Origin: an uncultured Gemmatimonadaceae bacterium
GTDB taxonomy: Bacteria > Gemmatimonadota > Gemmatimonadetes > Gemmatimonadales > Gemmatimonadaceae
Assembly (NCBI GenBank): GCA_963817955.1
Contig: CAWFQK010000001.1
Span: forward strand, 192,001-256,000
DNA length: 64,000 nucleotides
Direction of reading: 5' to 3'
Position numbers and translations under genes: made by a program. Below the pieces are notes generated by a model. The model made no database searches, was not told the DNA's origin, and saw nothing but the letters and a program-made list of their open reading frames with translations. Position 1 is the stretch's first letter. Every line of letters starts with the position of its first letter. Shown here piece by piece: positions 22,793-62,141 of this stretch.

Positions 22793-22907
22793 GAAGATGA
22801 CAATGGTCGGCGTCGACCGAATTGGTCAGGAAAGGAGGGATTGAGAGAGTCTCGGTCGATCTGACGGTCGGGTTAGGGGGTGGAATGACTGGTTACTAGA
22901 TGAAATC

Positions 22908-23259
22908 TGACGGCGCGAACTGCTAACGGCGCTGACTCCCTGACGGCGCTGACTCCCTAACGGCGCTGACTCCCTAACGGCGCTGACTCCCTAACGGCGC
23001 TGACTCCCTGACTGCGGCTTACGGCGGCTTACTGCGTTTGCGGCGCTGACTCCCTGGCGGCGGTTACTGCGCCAGCATCGCTGACCGATCCGAGGTCGCG
23101 TATTGAAGGTGGCCTTACGTCCGCCGTAAGCCGCCGTTCGCGCCGTAAGCCGCCGTCAGGGAGTTGGCGCAGTCAGGGAGTTAGCGCCGTTCGGGAGTCA
23201 GCGTAGGTAGGGAGTCAGCGCCGTCAGGGAGTCAGCGCCGTTAGCAGTTCGCGCCGTCA
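22908..23259. mobile_element. Family A palindromic element, copy 1 (arms of 17-bp ACGGCGCTGACTCCCT[G/A] units)
   Basis: 52-bp perfect terminal inverted repeat starting TGACGGCGCGAAC; core shared with copies at 27334 and 29651. Confidence 0.85.
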
Positions 23260-27333: not shown

Positions 27334-27762
27334 GACAGCGCGAAGCGCTGACGGCGCGAACGGCTGACGGCGCTGACTCCCTAACGGCGCGAACGGCTGA
27401 CGGCGCTGACTCCCTGACGGCGCCGACTCCCTGACTACGCCAACTCCCTGACAGCGCTGACTCCCTAACGGCGCTAACGCCCTGACGGCGGCTGACGGCG
27501 GCTGACGGCGGCTTACTGCGTTTGCGGCGCTGACTCCCTGACGGCGGTTACTGCGCCGGCATCGCTGACCAATCCGAGGTCGCGTACAGAAGGTGGCCTT
27601 ACGTCCGCCGTTCGCGCCGTTCGAGCCCGCCGTAAGCCGCCGTCAGGGAGTCAGCGCCGTTAGGGAGTTGGCGCCGTTAGGGAGTTAGCGCCGTCAGGGA
27701 GTCAGCGCCGTCAGGGAGTCAGCGCCGTCAGCCGTTCGCGCCGTCAGCGCTTCGCGCTGTCA
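27334..27762. mobile_element. Family A palindromic element, copy 2
   Basis: Both ends carry the private extension GACAGCGCGAAGCGC; same core as copy 1; fills the gap between two convergent genes. Confidence 0.85.
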
Positions 27763-29650: not shown

Positions 29651-30048
29651 GACGGCGCGAACGGCTGACGGCGCTGACTCCCTGACGGCGCTGACTCCCT
29701 ACCTACGCTGACTCCCGAACGGCGCCAACTCCCTGACTGCGCCAACTCCCTGACGGCGGCTTACGGCGGACGTAAGGCCACCTTCTGTACGCGACCTCGG
29801 ATTGGTCAGCGATGCCGGCGCAGTAACCGCCGCCAGGGAGTCAGCGCCGCAAACGCAGTAAGCCGCCGTAAGCCGCAGTCAGGGAGTCAGCGCCGTTAGG
29901 GAGTCAGCGCCGTTAGGGAGTCAGCGCCGTTAGGGAGTCAGCGCCGTCAGGGAGTCAGCGCCGTTAGCAGTTCGCGCCGTCAGGGAGTCGGCGCAGTCAG
30001 CCGTTCGCGCCGTTAGGGAGTCAGCGCCGTCAGCCGTTCGCGCCGTCA
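29651..30048. mobile_element. Family A palindromic element, copy 3 (core inverted relative to copies 1 and 2)
   Basis: Core GCCACCTTCTGTACGCGACCTCGGATTGGTCAGCGATGCCGGCGCAG is the reverse complement of the copy 2 core. Confidence 0.85.
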
Positions 30049-33000
30049 GAGACGCCACTCTCTCTACCCTCCCCTCAACCGGTTGTCCCGACACCCCTCC
30101 AATCACTTTCGCATACTCCTCCACTTGCCTCCCATACCGCTCGTATCTCGCCGACCATCCAGCATCGTCGACAACGTCGGTCTTCCAGTCGACCACACTC
30201 CATCCATCCGGGCCAACCGCGGCGGCATCGATCACGCCTTCGGTGATCGTCTCGACGCCATCACGCTCGGCACTTGCCATGATCGCTAACTCCACATGCA
30301 GCGTGCCGGCTGCCGTCAGGGCTTCCCACGATTCCGATTCCGCCGTTCGTTCGATCAGAGGATAGAGCGCCGCCGACAGCTCTTCGTCCAACCGCTCCTC
30401 GATCGCTACGGCACGCGCGAAGGCGAGGAGCGAATCGCCCCGGCGGCCGCGGCCGAGTGCTGCGAGGCAACGATGAACGGCGGTTCCCCAGGCGGTTCCA
30501 AGTCCCGTTCCATGCGTTGGGCTTTCTGCCGCGACTCGGTCTTCCATTGCGCCCTTTGCTTCCTCAGTGACGGTCACGAAGCGCAGGGATGGCGTGGCGG
30601 CGACGCGAATGCGGGCGGCTGCGTCGTCGGTCGCCTCCATCAGCGACTGGGTGGTGCGGTCCATACACTTGCGGCCGGGAGCGGACTCTACCTTCAGCTC
30701 TTTGGGAATCGCATGCTCATCGAGCATCGGGGCCAGCGGCCGCCACATGGAGTTGTCCAGCTTGGGGGTCGAACTCGTAGCGACTTCACACTGCGCCACA
30801 TAGAGCTCCCGCTTCGCTCGAGTCGCCGCGACGTAAAGCAGACGGGCTCTTTCTGCGTCCTGAAAGCGCGACTCCAGTTCCGCCATGTCGGCCCACTCCG
30901 GCGGCTGCGCCAGCACGTGAGTGTTGTGACCCTGTTGATGGGTGATGGACAAACCTCCCCTGGCACCACCGCTCTCACCGCGCGAAATGTGCACGCGCGG
31001 CTCGAACACCTTTCGGTCGACAGGTTCTGCAAGAATGACCACGTCGGACTCGAGACCCTTTGCCTTGTGCAGATTCATTACGCGCACGACATCGGTGCGG
31101 CCCGGGCGGAGCGGAGCGTCGGCCGCCTCGGCTCTCAGAATGGTTTCGAGGTATTCCATTGCGTCCGGAAGGCCATTCGCCCCCGCCACGGCCGATTCGC
31201 GTAGTGACGCAAGCAGATGGAGCAGCGCACCAGCGCGTGTTTCCCCGAGCGGCTGCGCCGCGGCGTGCAAGAGCAGACCACTCTCGTCCAGAATGCGTTC
31301 GAGAAGAATGTCCGCGGGATGACGTTGCGAGGCTTTCCACCACTCGTGTAATTGCAGCAGCGCGCGGGCTGCTGCGTCGGCCTCGTCGAGTGGCCGATGG
31401 CTGACGGAAAAGCGAATGCCGCGCTGTGATGCGTTCCACAGGTCCGCCGGGCTCATACCAAAGAACAGTCCTTCGAGCGCCGCCACGACGGCAATCGTAT
31501 TGTCCGGATCGGCAAGGGCGCGCAACACCACGAGGAGCTCGCGCAACTCATGCTCCTCTACCAGGCGCGCCCCTGTGGTCGCAACCGGAATGTTTCGCTC
31601 GATGAGCGCACGGGCGTACTGTTCGATGGGCGTCTTGGTCGCGGTGAGCACCATGAAATCGCCGGCTACCTTTTCGCCTTTCGCAATCCTGCCGGCGATG
31701 AAGCTCGCCACCATTGCTGCATCCAACTCGATGACGGCACCCTTTGCTCGCCCAGGTGGACGAACGGCGTATGTATAGACGCCGTCCCTTCCTTCCGGCT
31801 CGTGCTGGGTCTCCATGGGGCGATACGCCGCTTGTTCCGGCGTGGCCATCGCCGGAAACACTTCTGAGAAGTGGCAATTGACCACGGCTTCAACGGAACT
31901 CACCGAGCGGAAATTCGACGTGAGCGGCAGCACGACGCCGAACGCCTCCATGCGGCGTTTCACCAGCTCGTACGTCTCGATGTCAGCACGACGAAATCGG
32001 AAAATGCTCTGCTTCGGGTCGCCAACCACGAACAAGCTGCCGGGCCGCGGTGTCACGCGCCGCCAATCTTCGCCTTCGCTGGAATTGGACGTGAGCAGAA
32101 AGCACACCTCGGCCTGAATCGGATCAGTGTCCTGGAATTCATCCACGAGCAGGTGGGCATAGCGTGCACCAAGGTCATCCCGAACCGCCGGATGTTCGCG
32201 CAGCAGCCGGGCGGTGAGGAGCAGCAAATCCTCGAAGCCGAGCTGCCCCGTTGCGTGCCGTTCGCGGGCAAACTCCGACGCTGCGCGCTGAAGCACTTCC
32301 ATCACCAACGGATAGCGGTGCTCGCGCCAACAGCGGAGGACGTCGGCAATCGGCCCCTCGACCAATGTTGCGAAATCGTCGCGCAGGTTCTTTGCTTGAA
32401 GCTTGTCTTCCTTGGAATCGCTCCAGCGCTTCTGGACCACTTTGCAGTCGGACTTGGAGATCGACGCCAATACATCGCACAAGGTGGCGATGTCATCGAA
32501 CTGGCCGACGCTTCGCTTGAACTCCAGTCGACGCACGAGACTCATCACGCCGTCCCAACCGTCGCTGGGCTCTTCACGCGGCATCGCATGGCGCGCAGCG
32601 GCGAGGAGCCTCTCCAACTGCTCGCGACACAGCGTCGTATTTGGCTTCGCGACCGGGGTGAGCGGAAAGTCGACGTCGGGATACGTCATCACCAAGTTGA
32701 ACCCCTGGTACAACACGGATGGATCGATCCCCACCGAGTACAGCGCCGTGAGCCCGGCATCGTTGTTACGCTTCGCTCGCTCCACCCAGCGTCGCCAGAA
32801 GCGCCGCGTCATCTCCTCCCAATCGTCGTCACTGACCTCCTGAAAGTTCGGGTCCAACCCCGCTTCCAGCGGCCGTTCCCGCAGGAGCCGCGCACAGAAC
32901 GAGTGAATCGTGCCAAGGAACGCACGATCGAGCTCGTGGAGCGCACGGTCATAGCGCGCCGTCTCTTCGGACGTGTCGCCGGATTTGCGCAGTGCCTGCT

Positions 33001-52441: not shown

Positions 52442-53863
52442 ATGACATATCGCATCTTCTTCCTGGGTGCCACCTCGAGCGCGCTGCTCGTTGCGTTGCA
52501 CGCCTATCCAGCGCGCGATGCTCTTGCGCGCTCAGTCTCTGCGATCGCGCAGACGTCCTCATTGGACGACTCGACGGTCCTGCGTCTCATTCGTGAACGG
52601 GTGGACACGCGCCGCAACGTAGGCCTGGTCATCGGCATCATCGACTCCACGGGGCGTCGGCACGTCTACGAGTACGGCCGCTTGAACGGCCAGGGCTCAC
52701 CAGAGGTGGACGCAAACACGGTCTTCGAGATCGGCTCGATCACCAAGACGTTCACCACGACGCTCCTGGCCGCCATGGTGCGCCAGGGCGAGGTCGCGCT
52801 CGATGACCCCGTCTCGAAGTTCTTGCCGTCCGAGGTCCGCATGCAGGCGAACGGACGCGACATCACCCTGGAGGACCTCGCGACGCAGAGCTCGGGCCTT
52901 CCCCCCATGCCAGCCAACTTCCACCCGAAGAATGTGGAAGATCCATACGCGGATTATGGGACGCCGCAGCTCGACGGGTTCCTCACGGGCTACACGCCGC
53001 CGACCGCACCGGGGGTGAAATATGAATACTCTAACCTCGGCGTCGGCCTGCTCGGCTATGTCTTGAGCCGCCGAGCGGGCGTGCCGTACGAGCGACTGAT
53101 CGAGCAGCGCGTGCTCGCGCCGCTCGGCATGTCGGACACGCGGTTGGTATTGACGCCGGACATGAAGCGCCGGCTCGCCCCAGGCCACAACCGTGACGGC
53201 GACGAGGTGTCAGGTTGGACCTTCGACGCACTCGCCAGCGCCGGTGCGTTGCGATCCACCGTGAACGACCTGATGCGGTACGTTGCCGCCAATCTCGACA
53301 GCACGAGTCGCCCGCTCGGAGCCGTGCTCCGCGGCGCCCATCAGCCGCGTCGGCCGACGACCATTCCCAACACGCAGATCGGGCTCGCCTGGCACGTGCT
53401 CCGTGTGAACAACTCCGACGTCATCTGGCACAACGGCGAAACGGGAGGCTATCACTCCTTCATCGCGGTCGACCCAACGCGTCACGTGGGAGTGGTGGTG
53501 CTCAGCAACTCGGCGACGTCGATCGACGATCTGGGAATGCATCTCGTGGATGAGCGAATCCCGCTACATTTGCCGCCTGCGCCGCCGATCGAAGTGGTAC
53601 AGGATTCGATGATGGTGGACACGTACGTCGGAACGTACGAGCTCGCACCCGGCGCGAGGATGACGGTGACGAGAGCGGGATCGAAGCTCTACTTGCAGCC
53701 AACCGGGCAACAGAGGGTCCGCGTTTTTCCAACGTCGGATTCGACGTACAAGCTGACGGTCGTCGATGCACAGTTGACCTTTCATCACGACGCGCAAGGG
53801 AGGGTGAGTGAGATGGAATTGAGACAGGGGGGGAGGGAGATGAGGGGGGTTCGGGTTCGTTGA
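52442..53863 (+). CDS. Serine hydrolase (beta-lactamase class C-like) with DUF3471-like C-terminus
   Basis: SxxK (GSITK), YSN, WHNG; C-terminal YVGTY domain. Confidence 0.9.
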   Translation: MTYRIFFLGATSSALLVALHAYPARDALARSVSAIAQTSSLDDSTVLRLIRERVDTRRNVGLVIGIIDSTGRRHVYEYGRLNGQGSPEVDANTVFEIGSITKTFTTTLLAAMVRQGEVALDDPVSKFLPSEVRMQANGRDITLEDLATQSSGLPPMPANFHPKNVEDPYADYGTPQLDGFLTGYTPPTAPGVKYEYSNLGVGLLGYVLSRRAGVPYERLIEQRVLAPLGMSDTRLVLTPDMKRRLAPGHNRDGDEVSGWTFDALASAGALRSTVNDLMRYVAANLDSTSRPLGAVLRGAHQPRRPTTIPNTQIGLAWHVLRVNNSDVIWHNGETGGYHSFIAVDPTRHVGVVVLSNSATSIDDLGMHLVDERIPLHLPPAPPIEVVQDSMMVDTYVGTYELAPGARMTVTRAGSKLYLQPTGQQRVRVFPTSDSTYKLTVVDAQLTFHHDAQGRVSEMELRQGGREMRGVRVR

Positions 53864-54010
53864 CGGCGCGAACTGCTGACGGCGCTGACTCCCTGACAGC
53901 GCTGACTCCCAAACTGCGCTGACTCCCTCACGGCGCCAACTCCCTAACGGCGCTGACTCCCTGACGGCGGCTGACGGCGGACTTACAGCGTTGTTTACGG
54001 CGTTTACGGC
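53861..54010 (+). repeat. Family A left arm (partner at 56720-56818)
   Basis: TGACGGCGCGAAC terminus followed by 17-bp units in one orientation only. Confidence 0.85.
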
Positions 54011-54974
54011 ACTTCGGTTTCCGACTTGCCGTTGGCGTCCCACGGCGGTGAGCTGAAAGGCATCCACCACTTCCTTCATTCGTTCGGCTTGAGTCGCGAG
54101 CGGAGCGGAAGATGCCGCCGCCTGGTCTGCGTTCGCGACTGTTTGCTGCGTGACCGTGTTCATGTGATCCACTGCCGTATCGACCTCGGCGATCCCCTGC
54201 GTTTGCTGGTCGCTGGCCGCCGCTATCTCGGACATCACCTCGCTCACCTTGCTCACGCCTTCGGTGATCCCCTGGAGATTCTTCGCGACCTCTGCCGCCG
54301 TGAGCCGCTGCAAGCTCTCGACGCCGCGCGCGACTTTAGCGTTCACCGACGATCGCTTGGCCATCGCACCCATTTCCTGTAGACTCGCCGACACCTTCTG
54401 GAGCGAGCTTGCTCGTTCTGCCGAACCGCGCGGCGGCAGCGGCGGCGGCGGCGGCTCCCGACGTTTGCGTCGAGTTCGTCTCGTTGGTCTGGATCAAGTT
54501 GACCATGGTCGCAACCATGGCGGTTCCGAATGGCATAGTAGTGGCGGCGCGCCACCAATCGCCTCCTCCGTCTTTCCCGCCCCGTACAGTTCCAGGAACC
54601 GCGGCCGCGCGTCGCGGTACTTGGGATAGACGGAATCCCGCTGCGCGAGCACGGCGCGCTCGGACGCGTCCGTCGACGTCTTCCGATATGCCGCCATCGC
54701 GTCCTTGAGCGTCTTCTTAATGCCCGCGGTCTGGTCGATGATCTTTTGCTGATCCTCGGGAGTCTTGGCGGACACGAACTGTGAGACGCCAATCCGCAGT
54801 TCCCAGAGCGCATTCTGCGCAGTGCCGAGGTTGGCGGCCCCTGGAGTCGATCGGCGTAGAGCGCTAGCCCGGAGCGCGTCGTGTACCATTGGCCGCTCCG
54901 TTGAGCAGGACGAGCACAATGACCATCCCGAAGGCTCCGAGCAGCTTGCTCCTGATACTCAGGTTCTTGGGCAT
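54010..54974 (-). pseudogene. Methyl-accepting chemotaxis protein relic
   Basis: MPKNLSIRSKLLGAFG TM1, four-helix-bundle sensor fragment and EIAAASDQQTQGI..V...MNTVTQQ lie in different frames; TM2, HAMP and signalling tip absent. 3' boundary approximate. Confidence 0.85.
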
Positions 54975-56719: not shown

Positions 56720-56818
56720 AGTCAGCGCCGTAAGAGCGTTGGCGTAGTCAGGGAGTCCGCGCAGTCAGGGAGCTAGCGGCGTTCAGGAAGTCAGCGCCGT
56801 CAACAGTTCGCGCCGTCA
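56720..56818 (-). repeat. Family A right arm (degenerate)
   Basis: Ends GTTCGCGCCGTCA; order of variant units mirrors the arm at 53861. Confidence 0.8.
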
Positions 56819-56911: not shown

Positions 56912-57259
56912 ATGCCCGACGCCAGCCCGCGCGATCTCTTTCCCGGTGCTCTCGAGATGATGGTGCTCCGACTCCTCAAGCAGGAGCCGCTGCACGGCTA
57001 CGCGCTCGTGCAGCGGATTCAACAGGCGTCGGACAACCTGCTCGAGGTCGAAGAGGGATCACTGTATCCCGCTCTGCAGCGCCTGCTGAAGGATGGATTC
57101 GTGAGTGCCGAGTGGGGGGTGTCGTCGACGAACCGCCGGGTGCGGATCTATCGGCTCACGCCAGCGGGGGCAAAGCACCTGACCCGTCAAGTCTCGAGCT
57201 ACGCTCGGATGTTTGAGGGCATCAACCTCGTGTTGGCCTTCGGCGGGGGAAAGCTATGA
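56912..57259 (+). CDS. PadR family regulator (acidobacterial type)
   Basis: LHGY..VQRI, EEGSLYPALQRL, WG.S..NRR...Y.LT..G; coupled to an ADOP permease. Confidence 0.93.
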   Translation: MPDASPRDLFPGALEMMVLRLLKQEPLHGYALVQRIQQASDNLLEVEEGSLYPALQRLLKDGFVSAEWGVSSTNRRVRIYRLTPAGAKHLTRQVSSYARMFEGINLVLAFGGGKL

Positions 57260-59907
57260 TCTGGATCGATCGAGTCTTCCGACGCCATCACATCTATGAT
57301 GACCTCTCCGCGGAAATACGAGCGCACCTGGACGAACGAGTCGACGAACTGGTGGCACTGGGGATGTCCCGCGCCGATGCTCGCGCCGCCGCGCGCCGCG
57401 CTTTCGGGAACGTCACGGTGATTGAGGAACGGGCACGAGATACGTGGCAGTGGCCAACGATCGAGTCTTTCCTGATGGACATCCGATTCGCGCTCCGGCA
57501 ACTGCGTCGTGCGCCGGGCGTGACGGCGATCATCCTGCTCACGCTGGCCATCGGTATTGCGGCCGCGGCCACGGTATTCAGCTGGACCCGCACCATTCTA
57601 CTCGATCCTCTGCCCGGCGCCGGTGAGCCGACCCGAGTGCTGGCGCTCGAGTCCACCACGCCGGCGGGAACCTGGACGCCAACCTCATGGCCGGACTTCA
57701 TAGACTTTCGTAAATACCTGAAATCGTTCGACGGGCTTGCGGCGGCGTATCCGATTTCGCTGGCGATCGGCGATGCCGTGCACTCCGAACGTCAGCAGGC
57801 CGAACTCGTGTCGGCGAACTTCTTCGACGTGCTCCGGGTGCGACCTGCACTGGGGCGCTTCTTTCCGCCAAGCCGCGACAACGTGGAAGGCGGAGATCCC
57901 GACGTCGTCATCAGCTACAACCTCTGGCACAGTCGCTGGAAGGGTGACAGCGCGGTCATCGGCCGAGTGGTACACATCAACCGGTTTCCGTTCACGGTGA
58001 TCGGCATCGCACCGGCAGAATTTCAGGGCTCCATGCCAGGCGAGCAAGTCGACGTCTGGGTGCCGATGACGATGGTCGGACAGATCCTCCCAACCGGCAG
58101 CTCCATGCTGGGCGACCGCGCATGGCGGACGTTTCGCGTGCTGGCACGCATCGCTCCAAGTGTCACGCTGGCCGCAGCGCGCGAGGAGGTGGCGCGGTTC
58201 GCAACCTACATGGGCAAGGTGAACGGCGGGAGAAGTCTGGGAATGAGTGCCATGCTGCTGCCGCTCTGGCAATCGCATTGGGGCGTACAGAACACGCTCC
58301 GTGCGCCGCTCGTGGTGCTCATGGGCGCGTGCGGTCTCGTGCTGTTGATCGTTTGCGCGAACATGGCCAATCTGTTGTTGGCGCGAGCGACGGGCCGGCA
58401 GCGTGAGTTCGGTCTGCGGGTCGCGCTCGGTGCGCCGCGCCGGCGCCTCGTTCGACAACTGTTGACCGAGGCATCGATCCTTGCCGCAGCTGGCTCGGCG
58501 CTCGGTCTGCTCTGCACGCTGTGGCTCACGCACTCCCTCCATGTGCTCCTGCCGTCGTATGCGGCAGCGTCATTGCGCGACCCGAAGGTCGGCGCTGGCG
58601 TGTTGGCGTTCACAGCGGCGCTCGCGTGCGGTGTGACGCTCCTCGCCGGCATCGCGCCGGCGCTGCACGGCTCGCGCGAGCGGGTTGGCGATGCCTTGAA
58701 TGAGGGCGGACGCGGAGCCATTGGCGGCGTTCACATCACGCGTCTGCGCAACTTGCTTGTGATTGGCGAGATGGCGCTGGCAATGATGTCGCTGGTGGGA
58801 GCGGGACTGTTCTACGACAGCTACCGCCGCACGCACGCCGTGGCCCCTGGCTTCATCGCCGAACATGTCGCAATGGCCGCGGTGAGCCTGACGCTCGCCG
58901 GTTACGATTCGGCGCACGCTGATGCCTTCCTTCGTCGCGTGTCCGACCGCATTCGACGCGAGCCTGGTGTCTCGGCCACGAGCTACACTGATTACGTACC
59001 GCTCAGCATGGGTCAGGGATCGTGGGAGGATCTGAACGTGGAGGGCTACGCGCCCCAGCCCAACGAAGACATGAAGCTGTTCCGCGCGGCGATTGGCCCG
59101 GACTACTTCGCGTCCATGCAGATACCATTGTTGGCCGGTCGCGACTTTCGGATGGACGATGATTCCGCCCACACGCCGGTGATGATCGTCAACGCTGCGT
59201 TCGTGCAGCATTTCCTACGTGGCCGTTCGGTGCTCGGCGTGAAGGTGAAGGGATGGGGCAAGTGGTTCACGATCGTCGGGGTGGCGAAAGACGTGAAGGT
59301 GTATCGTCTCAGCGAGTCGCCCACACCCTACTTCTATGTCGCCGTACGGCAGGTGTATCGTCCGGAATACGGTTACACGTTCCTGGCATGCACTGCGGCG
59401 CCGGTGGATCAAGCGGTGAGAACGATCATGCAAGCCGTGAAGGAAGCCGATCCAACTGTGCCGACATTCAACGCCATGCCGCTCACCGAGTACATCAGCG
59501 CACCGCTGCGCGGACAGCAAACCGCCGCGCAACTCCTGGCACTTCTCGCCGCGGTTGCGATGCTCCTCGCGGCCATCGGACTCTACGGCGTCATTTCATA
59601 TGCCGTGGCAGAACGGTCGAAGGAGATCGGCGTTCGCGTTGCATTGGGAGCGCAACCGTCTGACGTATTCCGAGCGGTCGCATCGCAGGCGGGAAGCTTG
59701 GTGGTTCGAGGCCTTGTCGTGGGGCTTGGGGGAGCAGTGGTGCTCGGGCGAATCGTGGCGTCGCTGCTGTTCTCCGTGGGTGCTGGCGACGTGACGGCGT
59801 TCGCCGTCGCGGCAGGAGGGATGGTTGTGATCGCCGTGGCCGCGACGGCAGTGCCGATGAGAAGAGTGATGAAGGTGGATCCGATTGGGGTGTTGAGGGC
59901 TGAATAG
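57256..59907 (+). CDS. ADOP family duplicated ABC permease with prefix domain
   Basis: EIRAHL...G.S...AR..A...FG prefix, CANMANLLLAR, REFGLRVALGA, EIGVRVALGA. Confidence 0.93.
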   Translation: MIWIDRVFRRHHIYDDLSAEIRAHLDERVDELVALGMSRADARAAARRAFGNVTVIEERARDTWQWPTIESFLMDIRFALRQLRRAPGVTAIILLTLAIGIAAAATVFSWTRTILLDPLPGAGEPTRVLALESTTPAGTWTPTSWPDFIDFRKYLKSFDGLAAAYPISLAIGDAVHSERQQAELVSANFFDVLRVRPALGRFFPPSRDNVEGGDPDVVISYNLWHSRWKGDSAVIGRVVHINRFPFTVIGIAPAEFQGSMPGEQVDVWVPMTMVGQILPTGSSMLGDRAWRTFRVLARIAPSVTLAAAREEVARFATYMGKVNGGRSLGMSAMLLPLWQSHWGVQNTLRAPLVVLMGACGLVLLIVCANMANLLLARATGRQREFGLRVALGAPRRRLVRQLLTEASILAAAGSALGLLCTLWLTHSLHVLLPSYAAASLRDPKVGAGVLAFTAALACGVTLLAGIAPALHGSRERVGDALNEGGRGAIGGVHITRLRNLLVIGEMALAMMSLVGAGLFYDSYRRTHAVAPGFIAEHVAMAAVSLTLAGYDSAHADAFLRRVSDRIRREPGVSATSYTDYVPLSMGQGSWEDLNVEGYAPQPNEDMKLFRAAIGPDYFASMQIPLLAGRDFRMDDDSAHTPVMIVNAAFVQHFLRGRSVLGVKVKGWGKWFTIVGVAKDVKVYRLSESPTPYFYVAVRQVYRPEYGYTFLACTAAPVDQAVRTIMQAVKEADPTVPTFNAMPLTEYISAPLRGQQTAAQLLALLAAVAMLLAAIGLYGVISYAVAERSKEIGVRVALGAQPSDVFRAVASQAGSLVVRGLVVGLGGAVVLGRIVASLLFSVGAGDVTAFAVAAGGMVVIAVAATAVPMRRVMKVDPIGVLRAE

Positions 59908-59913
59908 GAGGCG

Positions 59914-60407
59914 TAACGGCGCAAACGGCTGACGGCGCTGACTCCGTAACGGCGCGAACTGCTGACGGCGCTGACGCCCTAACGGCGCTGACTCCCTGAC
60001 GGCGCCAACTCCCTGAGGTCGCTGACTCCCTAACGGCGCCAACTCCCTGACGGCGGGCTTACGGCGGGCTTACGGCGGATGACTCCCTAGCACGAACGGT
60101 TCGGAGGAACCGCGCGCGGTCTACGCCGAGCCTGCGGACCAAACCTTCGGAGATACTCGCCCGATGGATTGCGCGGAATTTCAGAGCGGCTCGACGTGCA
60201 GCAGCCGGGGAGTGAAGTCGACCAGCTGAACCATCTCACCAGCTACGAGATCCGCGCCAAACGCCCGCCGTAAGCCGCCGTAAGCCCGCCGTAAGCCGCC
60301 GTCAGGGAGTTGGCGCCGTTAGGGAGTCAGCGACCTCAGGGAGTTGGCGCCGTCAGGGAGTCAGCGCCGTTAGGGCGTCAGCGCCGTCAGCAGTTCGCGC
60401 CGTTACG
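59914..60407. mobile_element. Family A palindromic element, copy 5, with a distinct core
   Basis: 112-bp perfect inverted repeat (59945-60056 / 60296-60407) around a unique core. Confidence 0.88.
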
Positions 60408-60518
60408 CCGCTTCGCCTCGTCAGCTCTATTCCCCACCACGTTGCGCGCCGCTTCGCGCGCCGAGCAGATTGAGATCATGAATGCGCTACGCCTACTCGT
60501 CCCCATCGTTCGGTTGTC

Positions 60519-62141
60519 ATGACCAGCGCCACACCACCATCGCGCGGCGCGACCAGGGCGCAGCCGCTCGCCCAGGAGACCGACATCGAGAAGTTCCGCT
60601 GGTTCATCCTGCTCGGGCTGATTACCGCGGCGATGATGGAGATTCTCGACACGACCATCATCAATGTGGCGCTGCCGGATATGGCCGGGAACCTCGGCGC
60701 GACACACGAAGAGATTGCCTGGGTCAGTACGTCGTACATCATCTCGAATGTCGTCGTGCTCCCCATGACCGCGTTCTTCGCCGCCACTTTTGGGCGGAAG
60801 CGCTATCTCACGTTCTCCATTCTGCTCTTCATCTTCGCCTCGTTCATGTGCGGCACGTCGCACAGCCTCGGCGAGCTCGTCGTGTGGCGTCTCGTACAGG
60901 GCGCCGGCGGCGCGGCGCTGCTCTCGACCGCCCAAGCCACGCTCCGGCAGATCTTTCCGCGAGAAGAGCAGGGGATGGTGCAGGCCATCTTCATGCTCGG
61001 CGTCATCGTCGCGCCCACAATGGGGCCGACGCTCGGCGGTTGGATCACGGATAATTACCAGTGGAACTGGTGCTTCTTCATCAACGTTCCCATCGGTTTA
61101 CTGTCGGCGTTCCTGGTGACCACGTTCCTGCACGATCATCCGGGCCAACAGCGGCGCTCTGGGCCAGTGGATTGGTTCGGCATCGGCTTGCTGATCGCGG
61201 GGGTTGGCCCGTTGCAGTACGTGCTGGAGGAAGGAAACAAGAACGATTGGTTCGCCGACCGGACGATCACGGGGCTCTCCATTCTCGCCGTGGTGTCGCT
61301 GCTGACGATGGTCTGGTGGGAGCTGTCGCCGCGCAACGAGCATCCGGTGATCGAGTTCCGAGTGCTGCGCAATCGCGATCTCGCCGCGTCGATCTTCCTG
61401 TTCGTCGTACTCGGCTTCGGGCTCTTCGGCGGGACCTTCCTTTTCCCGCTCTTCACGCAGGGCATCCTCGGCTTCACGCCACTGATGACCGGTCTCGCCA
61501 TGTTCCCAGGCGGCATCGCATCTGGGGCGCTCGCGCTCGTCTGCGGACGACTGCTCAACGGAAAGCGACCGCTGGTGGACTCGCGGCTGCTGATTCTCTG
61601 CGGAATCTTCCTGTTCCTGCTGTCCATGTGGAAGCTGGGACACCTGACGTCGGCAGCAGGGGAGCCTGATGCTCGATTCGCCCTGATCATTCGCGGCGCG
61701 GCACTCGGACTCCTCTTCACGCCGATCAACAACGCCGCCTTCGGCAGCCTGGAGCCGAGCGAGGCGCAGCAGGCCTCCGGACTCATCAACCTGTCGCGAC
61801 AGCTCGGCGGCTCCTTCGGTATCGCGGTGCTCACGACGTATGTGACCCGTCACATCCAGTACCACCGGGCAGACCTGGTCAGCAACGTGTACGCCGGCAA
61901 TCCGGCGTTCGAGCAGCGGTACCAGGCAACGGTGCAGGCGCTCATTGCCCACGGAGCGCCCGCGATCACCGCGAAGCAGGAGGCGATGAAGGTGATCGAC
62001 GGTACGCTGATGCGTCAGGCGTCAATGTTGGCGTACAACGACGCATGGATGCTGATCCTGCTGTCGTTCCTCTTCGTGGCGCCGGCGGTGCTGTTGCTGC
62101 GGAAACATCGCAGAAACGCAGCGCCGGCTGAGGCACACTGA
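60519..62141 (+). CDS. DHA2 family MFS efflux permease (EmrB/QacA)
   Basis: LDTTIINVALP, WVSTSY, RLVQGAGG, GPTLGG, W.FFINVPIG. Confidence 0.93.
   Translation: MTSATPPSRGATRAQPLAQETDIEKFRWFILLGLITAAMMEILDTTIINVALPDMAGNLGATHEEIAWVSTSYIISNVVVLPMTAFFAATFGRKRYLTFSILLFIFASFMCGTSHSLGELVVWRLVQGAGGAALLSTAQATLRQIFPREEQGMVQAIFMLGVIVAPTMGPTLGGWITDNYQWNWCFFINVPIGLLSAFLVTTFLHDHPGQQRRSGPVDWFGIGLLIAGVGPLQYVLEEGNKNDWFADRTITGLSILAVVSLLTMVWWELSPRNEHPVIEFRVLRNRDLAASIFLFVVLGFGLFGGTFLFPLFTQGILGFTPLMTGLAMFPGGIASGALALVCGRLLNGKRPLVDSRLLILCGIFLFLLSMWKLGHLTSAAGEPDARFALIIRGAALGLLFTPINNAAFGSLEPSEAQQASGLINLSRQLGGSFGIAVLTTYVTRHIQYHRADLVSNVYAGNPAFEQRYQATVQALIAHGAPAITAKQEAMKVIDGTLMRQASMLAYNDAWMLILLSFLFVAPAVLLLRKHRRNAAPAEAH

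Follow-up and report, generated by a model that had tools for sequence, protein, structure and literature searches.

Open reading frames are carried within the 23S rRNA IVS of Leptospira as well as within that of Coxiella burnetii. PF05635 proteins, to which such frames belong, and GxxExxY proteins are both very large families, and we know of no role for either outside DGRs. In C. burnetii, the IVS that contains the S23p ORF is described as bounded by stem-forming inverted repeats and regarded as a selfish insert whose ORF is prone to decay, the stem being excised by RNase III (PMC4990558). REPIN-RAYT systems are described as REP doublets together with a REP-associated tyrosine transposase gene that is itself flanked by cognate repeats (PMC3116915, PMC3337134), and a resemblance between PF05635 proteins and Avd of phage BPP-1 has been described (PMC10053308). 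In the literature that we searched, PF05635 and GxxExxY genes appear mainly as rRNA-IVS ORFs or as unexplained operon inserts; those PF05635 genes that are reported wedged in cas loci were read as a functional association (PMC3936711). Inserts with a PF05635 domain are also reported in CPR rRNA genes (bioRxiv 10.1101/2024.02.27.582315), and PF13366, a GxxExxY profile, is listed as being of unknown function (PMC3424549). Our search of the full-text literature, excluding subscription journals, brought up no account of hairpin cassettes with repeat-array arms around PF05635 or GxxExxY genes outside rRNA.

Here we analyse a hairpin element in the window, by which we mean the whole stretch of 64,000 nucleotides under study, together with its relatives in the same genome and genus. 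The element is very probably a dead, non-autonomous copy of a hairpin-bounded four-helix-bundle gene cassette, a judgement that takes the putative steps of decay, copying and recognition together. As in the 23S rRNA IVS, the intact cassettes (29 of 29) hold a small PF05635-family ORF within inverted repeats that form a long stem. Unlike an IVS, however, the window element has a permease gene and an MFS gene as its neighbours and does not lie in helix 25 or 45 of 23S rRNA, the arms are 112-280 nt of layered tandem units of 13-34 bp, and gene-less copies are dispersed; the two 23S genes of this genome carry no large insert (2975 nt vs a 2925-position model). In layout the element resembles an rRNA IVS, but it sits among ordinary genes.

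The likeness to REPIN-RAYT lies in one or a few vertically kept genes flanked by inverted cognate repeats, accompanied by gene-less doublets and singlets in intergenic DNA, here five short-core two-armed loci and six single arms. The differences are that the protein is not a Y1/HUH transposase (PF01797 has no match in this genome, which is 94% complete) but a four-helix bundle for which no catalytic activity is known, that the arms are arrays of 5-16 units as opposed to a single palindrome of ~20 nt, and that the copy number is low (13 loci). With the Avd of DGRs the element shares the protein family, but none of the five PF05635 genes of this genome lies beside a reverse transcriptase, a template or a variable repeat; the sole RVT_1 match (G000:C4:732178-732693, in a 425-aa open frame) is more than 300 kb from any of them. 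Like MITEs, the element is a short non-coding intergenic derivative with long terminal inverted repeats and an internal deletion relative to a gene-bearing parent. Unlike them, it shows no target-site duplication, its parent has no transposase, and its arms are tandem arrays. Positions outside the window are given as genome:contig:coordinates, where G000 is the own genome with its contigs C1, C2 and C4, and G003, G009, G017, G019 and G020 are relatives.

Structure of the element

The element and its neighbours comprise the following features:

57256-59907, plus strand: upstream host gene, a duplicated MacB/FtsX-type permease (PF12704, E 4.7e-34; PF02687, E 7.5e-26)
59912-59944, no strand: additional 33-bp block on the outside, repeating the left terminus in tandem (TAACGGCGCAAAC...), unpaired on the right (period 33, 2.3 copies, 59912-59988)
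59945-60056, no strand: left arm, beginning with the terminal unit TAACGGCGCGAACTG followed by 17-bp units; 112 nt, 100% complementary to 60296-60407
60050-60083, no strand: inner left repeats, 11-bp GGCTTACGGCG-type units (60050-60078, period 11, 2.6 copies)
60263-60302, no strand: inner right repeats, 10/21-bp CCGCCGTAAG-type units
60296-60407, no strand: right arm, reverse-complementary to the left arm without a difference and ending in GTTCGCGCCGTTA
60519-62141, plus strand: downstream host gene, an MFS transporter (PF07690, E 3e-55), starting 111 nt past the element

The original prediction had described perfect inverted arms of 112 bp built from 17-bp units, and this is what we find: the two arms are complementary throughout at a spacing of 239 nt, and none of their 112 paired positions is a G-U pair. 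The 17-bp period runs through 7.5 copies on the left (59929-60055) and 5.5 on the right (60297-60390), and every unit can be divided into two half-units of the CTRAC type, 9 and 8 bp long; the inner repeats at 60050-60078 and 60263-60302 are made of 10-11-bp units. The TAG stop codon of the permease (59905-59907) lies only 4 nt before the outermost repeat block and 37 nt before the paired left arm, and the element is co-directional with both neighbouring genes. The open frames at 59596-60042 (minus strand, 148 codons) and 60310-60522 (plus strand, 70 codons) traverse the repeat arms, and in annotation such frames should be treated as by-products of the repeats, not as genes.

The predicted RNA fold of 59905-60420 has a free energy of -406.4 kcal/mol (z = -28.6), a value reached by none of 100 dinucleotide shuffles (mean -225.1 kcal/mol, sd 6.35). 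Scans for sigma-70 promoters and intrinsic terminators return no site in the remnant region and none in the intact cassette described below, no U-tract or terminator-like site is present at the element, and Rfam at E <= 1 yields nothing relevant, the sole row being a chance snoRNA match of 16.7 bits.

Perfect long inverted repeats are a known failure mode of assemblers and the genome looks like a metagenome bin, which raises the question of a false palindrome made by the assembler. Read-size contigs from the soil-metagenome runs X1 and X2 (one study) nevertheless span all four junctions, that is both outer junctions and both borders between arm and core (59886-60036, 60027-60140, 60223-60325 and 60296-60498), with 0 differences, although these runs may be the assembly's own source and do not count as independent support. 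Related elements whose arms are imperfect are also present at 12 further loci and in other genomes, and we give an artefact hardly any credence. The matching metagenome DNA contigs contain no joint across the element.

The core and its intact paralogue

The core had been taken for unique sequence, but it has one match in its own genome, on the opposite strand at G000:C4:1616871-1617037, with 86.2% identity over 167 aligned nt. This match lies within a 121-codon ORF on another contig (G000:C4:1616835-1617197), which sits between arms of the same family (167 nt, 85% matched) and is the only cargo of the parent cassette. The ORF matches PF05635 (23S_rRNA_IVP) with an E value of 7.8e-16 and 58.7 bits, against a curated cut-off of 33.8, and TIGR02436 (four helix bundle protein) with an E value of 1.8e-16 and 60.3 bits, against a cut-off of 24. 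A PDB sequence search returns only 2GSC (Xanthomonas XCC0516), with an E value of 0.0086. In a tblastn comparison, the intact paralogue aligns to the core with 49.3 bits (E 1.2e-15) and 72.7% identity over 33 aa, which defines one further feature:

60090-60255, minus strand: PF05635 four-helix-bundle gene remnant, codons ~12-68 of 121, recognised by DNA identity and tblastn to the intact paralogue

This stretch carries a CGA-to-TGA change that creates a stop codon at 60181-60183 (minus strand) and a frameshift caused by one base missing from the C run at 60160-60162, while deletions have taken the promoter and leader, the start codon and ~53 codons at the 3' end. The window copy does not hold a frame intact over the expected length of ~110-130 codons, and is a gene remnant as opposed to a member protein. 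Since its two minus-strand stop-free pieces have no Pfam or NCBIfam match at E <= 10, the remnant is assigned to PF05635 through its likeness to one intact paralogue. The alignments identify the core as a broken minus-strand piece of a gene of the PF05635 (23S-rRNA-IVS protein/Avd) family.

The original prediction had read the core differently, as a deleted plus-strand GxxExxY (PF13366/TIGR04256) nuclease gene, with the arms belonging to a GxxExxY-based mobile system. The short peptides on which it was built do occur in the plus-strand frames, but they are scattered over three of these and carry no family signal, and neither the four plus-strand nor the two minus-strand stop-free pieces match PF13366 or TIGR04256 at E <= 10. 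The GxxExxY motif itself is absent, as the prediction had acknowledged. Among 29 GxxExxY proteins from the genus, the highest score on the core is 17.3 bits, below the median of 18.5 bits obtained with 100 shuffles (maximum 21.6). It is true that GxxExxY genes are also boxed by inverted repeats (2 of 2 in this genome and 17 of 30 genus loci at >= 40 bits). The arms of the own-genome copies, however, belong to a different sequence family, the terminus TGACGGCGCGAAC of the present arms is found at 0 of 30 genus GxxExxY loci (30 examined of about 130 listed PF13366 places), and none of the arm-bearing loci of relatives shows GxxExxY similarity (0 of 31 and 0 of 29, or 0 of 60). Similarity no better than that of shuffled sequence, and the lack of intact GxxExxY genes between these arms in relatives, were the two outcomes that the prediction itself had named as refuting it, and both are what we observe. 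Together with the 86% identity of the core to a PF05635 gene on the opposite strand, they make the GxxExxY reading wrong in family and in strand, and we consider it extremely improbable. The remainder of the prediction fares better: the proposed non-autonomous derivation from a small gene between palindromic arms agrees with the existence of the intact cassette, of this remnant and of gene-less copies, and the proposed REPIN-like dispersal agrees with the spread of the gene-less copies through the genome.

The arm family in this genome

Arms of the same type occur at 13 loci of this genome, comprising the intact cassette, the window remnant, five short-core hairpins and six single arms. Three of the short-core hairpins share a common core and lie in the window, while the two others, on C4, have other cores. 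The additional members in the window are:

22907-23259, plus strand: short-core member, type B
27335-27760, plus strand: short-core member, type B
29651-30052, minus strand: short-core member, type B, inverted relative to 22907-23259
53861-54002, no strand: single arm, left-arm polarity
56720-56818, no strand: single arm, right-arm polarity, just upstream of a PadR gene

The layers of the arms follow a fixed order, from the outer terminus TGACGGCGCGAAC through 17-bp units to 10-11-bp units, and the dominant unit variant in this genome is ACTCCCTRA (85 of 94 listed units), each genome having its own variant. The three type B copies have the same core and the same asymmetric arms, their similarity stops at TGACGGCGCGAAC and GTTCGCGCCGTC, and their flanks are unrelated, which argues that a unit was copied whole to new places. 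Inspection by eye reveals no target-site duplication or target motif at the 13 loci, and no transposase is linked to the elements. According to crude ORF calls, 11 of the 13 loci abut the 3' end of an ORF.

The loci are strongly clustered, with 25 of 78 locus pairs lying within 40 kb where 1.3 are expected, a number attained in none of 10,000 simulations. Eleven of the 13 loci fall in two stretches of 38 and 25 kb (window 22907-60407 and G000:C4:1133675-1159071). The elements may concentrate in variable regions or may hop locally.

The two single arms in the window could be imagined to bound a composite with 2.7 kb of cargo, a candidate that we rejected by eye, as the interval consists of ordinary-looking gene fragments with two ORFs that have no Pfam match. 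Beside the arm at 53861-54002, two adjacent minus-strand frames (53564-54919) have translations that resemble, by eye, the C-terminal signalling and N-terminal parts of a chemoreceptor, and may represent a split or broken gene.

Gene-bearing cassettes across the genus

A search with the intact protein finds relatives in 19 of 31 genus genomes, the own genome included. In an intact cassette, the 5' arm is followed by a leader, a PF05635 gene of ~120 codons and the 3' arm, and the cassettes of this subfamily form discrete blocks in intergenic spacers, just past a stop codon. An inverted repeat flanks all 29 evaluable subfamily genes (of 30 loci fetched), scoring 55-354 bits and consisting of 13-34-bp tandem units, most of which share an ACGGCGC-like half; at 400 random places in the own genome, the best flanking repeat reaches 32.8 bits, within a reach of 600 nt as compared to 700 nt for the subfamily genes.

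The exact arm patterns of the own genome have no match in relatives, and a degenerate two-unit pattern was used instead. The arm family is carried by 12 of 24 genomes of the genus and by 0 of 16 from other families of the order, and among species representatives the degenerate pattern occurs in 29 stretches, all in Gemmatimonadaceae MAG records. The subfamily gene is found in all 12 arm-positive genomes and in 4 of 12 arm-negative ones, a purely descriptive comparison given that the genomes are kin. Protein clades coincide with unit types, as simple linkage would also produce. The orientation of the upstream neighbour gives no sign of a dependence on read-through: it is co-directional at 15 of 26 and 14 of 24 loci, an unbiased split in counts that use crude stop-to-stop gene calls and include many kin loci.

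The dN/dS ratio is 0.07-0.44 in 15 of 15 pairs, and by this measure the subfamily genes are under purifying selection. Among closer species, cassettes are syntenic at 87-91% identity, and those at syntenic sites of close relatives look vertically inherited, as stable residents and not fast movers. The low dS between some species (0.04-0.1) had hinted at horizontal transfer, an explanation that we rejected, as the loci concerned are syntenic at 87-91% over 3.3 kb and simply belong to closer relatives. Between closely related genomes, the arrays rapidly gain and lose units.

In 19 of 19 cassettes, the gene is preceded by a leader of 59-110 nt that sets it apart from the 5' arm. The leader contains a hexamer of the form xAxxxT, which ends 5-6 nt before the ATG and whose A and T do not vary among the 16 cassettes aligned. 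As this distance leaves no space for a ribosome-binding site, a leaderless mRNA is predicted, and we infer that the hexamer is a promoter located inside the loop.

One site can be compared in its filled, empty and decayed states. The locus of a sister-clade cassette, here called L176 (G017:C2:329768-333106), is conserved across the genus. In five genomes it is filled with a block of ~750 nt. It is empty in G020, in G003 and in the own genome (G000:C2:868600-868675), where a spacer of 76 bp, with neither inverted nor tandem repeats, separates the flanking genes; three more genomes have spacers of 49-100 bp, as judged by coordinates. In G019 only the arms and an internal gene fragment of 45 aa are left, the same state as that of the window remnant. 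The comparison of these states indicates that the cassette is a unit that is present or absent as a whole and that decays to arms and a gene fragment. In other genomes, the L176 spacer holds different hairpin repeats, 13-mer arrays and other palindromes, and in this respect it resembles a hot spot for hairpin elements. The window locus and the three short-core loci lack such counterparts among 30 relatives: in none of them do the permease and MFS genes lie side by side (best identity 80%), and the genes flanking the short-core loci are not syntenic.

These observations bear on whether the elements move at all. Local duplication or recombination of tandem arrays could produce hairpins in place, the gene fragment being captured by chance, and the strong clustering of the family, the fast gain and loss of units between close relatives, and the finding of neither target duplications nor a transposase are compatible with such an origin. 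It does not account for three copies that share a core, asymmetric arms and sharp ends but have unrelated flanks, for copies on two contigs and far apart on one of them, for the same layered architecture around orthologous genes in other genomes, or for a whole block that is present or absent at a syntenic site. We regard an immobile origin as very unlikely and retain the copying of a cassette as the explanation.

Proposed origin and mechanism

Based on the above data, we propose that gene-less hairpins and single arms would derive from gene-bearing cassettes by internal deletion, with the remnants in the window and in G019 as putative intermediates of this decay. In the window copy, deletions have removed the start with the leader before it, as well as the gene's 3' half, and the stop codon and frameshift have broken what remained.

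The perfect 112-nt arms would result from recent copying at the DNA level, either through inverted-repeat gene conversion or through re-synthesis of one arm from the other. Copying of this kind, as opposed to selection on an RNA stem, is suggested by the lack of G-U pairs in the arms and by the fact that the arms of the 19 measured gene-bearing cassettes are only 74-98% matched; those of the short-core copies in this genome are imperfect too. A direct comparison of G-U with A-C mismatches (20 vs 13, p 0.30; 12 vs 8, p 0.50), made on 19 elements with about half of the cassettes dropped for lack of a strand call, is not significant and so leaves the choice between a DNA-level and an RNA-level role undecided.

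An RNA-level role would make the element a domesticated one, the stem in the permease 3' UTR serving as an RNase III site, as an insulator or as a stabiliser between the permease and MFS genes, with selection keeping the arms perfect. Its start 4 nt past the permease stop, its co-directionality with both neighbours, the extreme stability of its stem, the position of 11 of 13 family loci at the 3' end of a crude ORF call and the excision of the Coxiella IVS stem by RNase III (PMC4990558) would all be in keeping with this role. Against it stand the missing U-tract or terminator-like site, the missing Rfam match, the imperfect arms of other members, whose mismatches show no significant G-U excess, and the pairing of all 112 positions without a single G-U. 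The same arms are moreover found at a divergent promoter region and also singly, in which state no stem can form. We judge a domesticated RNA element improbable, and continue with the decayed cassette as the preferred reading.

The remnant would have no product of its own. Read-through from the permease would yield a duplex RNA of ~134 bp, which, by analogy with rRNA IVS stems, RNase III would probably cut. For the intact protein, we hypothesise on the model of REPIN-RAYT that it probably recognises the repeat units, both those in its own arms and those in gene-less copies, and binding to these units offers a testable function for this four-helix bundle. With gene and repeat arms forming one heritable unit that is under purifying selection and is present or absent as a block, the putative decay of cassettes to gene-less hairpins would explain in concrete terms where one class of palindromic intergenic repeats comes from.

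A wider extension of this scheme is possible but considerably more doubtful. Four-helix-bundle hairpin cassettes might constitute a distinct, transposase-less class of insertable elements, in which an Avd-like protein, the probable product of a leaderless transcript with its promoter in the loop, would recognise its own 13-34-bp arm units and thereby maintain or propagate both the cassette and the gene-less hairpins. The rRNA IVS would then be the subset that landed in rRNA genes, and the remnants would link the gene-bearing form to REP-like intergenic repeats.

Packaging of other PF05635 and GxxExxY genes

The profile matches to PF05635 in this genome are as follows:

C4:1054669, C4:1553199, C4:1616850, C1:472315 and C2:824631: own-genome PF05635 genes

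Inverted repeats of 48-167 nt enclose four of these five genes and both GxxExxY genes, and every set of arms belongs to a different sequence family. When one locus is taken per genome across the genus, a flanking repeat of >= 40 bits is present at 19 of 28 evaluable PF05635 loci and at 17 of 30 PF13366 loci, as compared to 0 of 400 random places. The general idea of the original prediction was not far off in this respect, since GxxExxY genes of the genus are packaged likewise, with other arm sequences.

The two own-genome GxxExxY genes (G000:C2:315561-316243 and G000:C2:763880-764550) have inverted arms of 107-122 nt that are 92% matched, start with a GTCATCCTGAGCG.AGCGAAGGATCTC-type motif and finish in 10-13-bp AGAGAACTGCAAA-type repeats. 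The GTCATCCTGAGCG.AGCGAAGGATCTC-type motif recurs as a repeat in G009, at the site orthologous to L176. Another PF05635 gene, near G000:C1:472057-472224, has arms made of heptamers of the AGTTGTG type, and the interval named, between its 5' arm and the gene, holds seven copies of a 24-bp tandem repeat with 97% matches.
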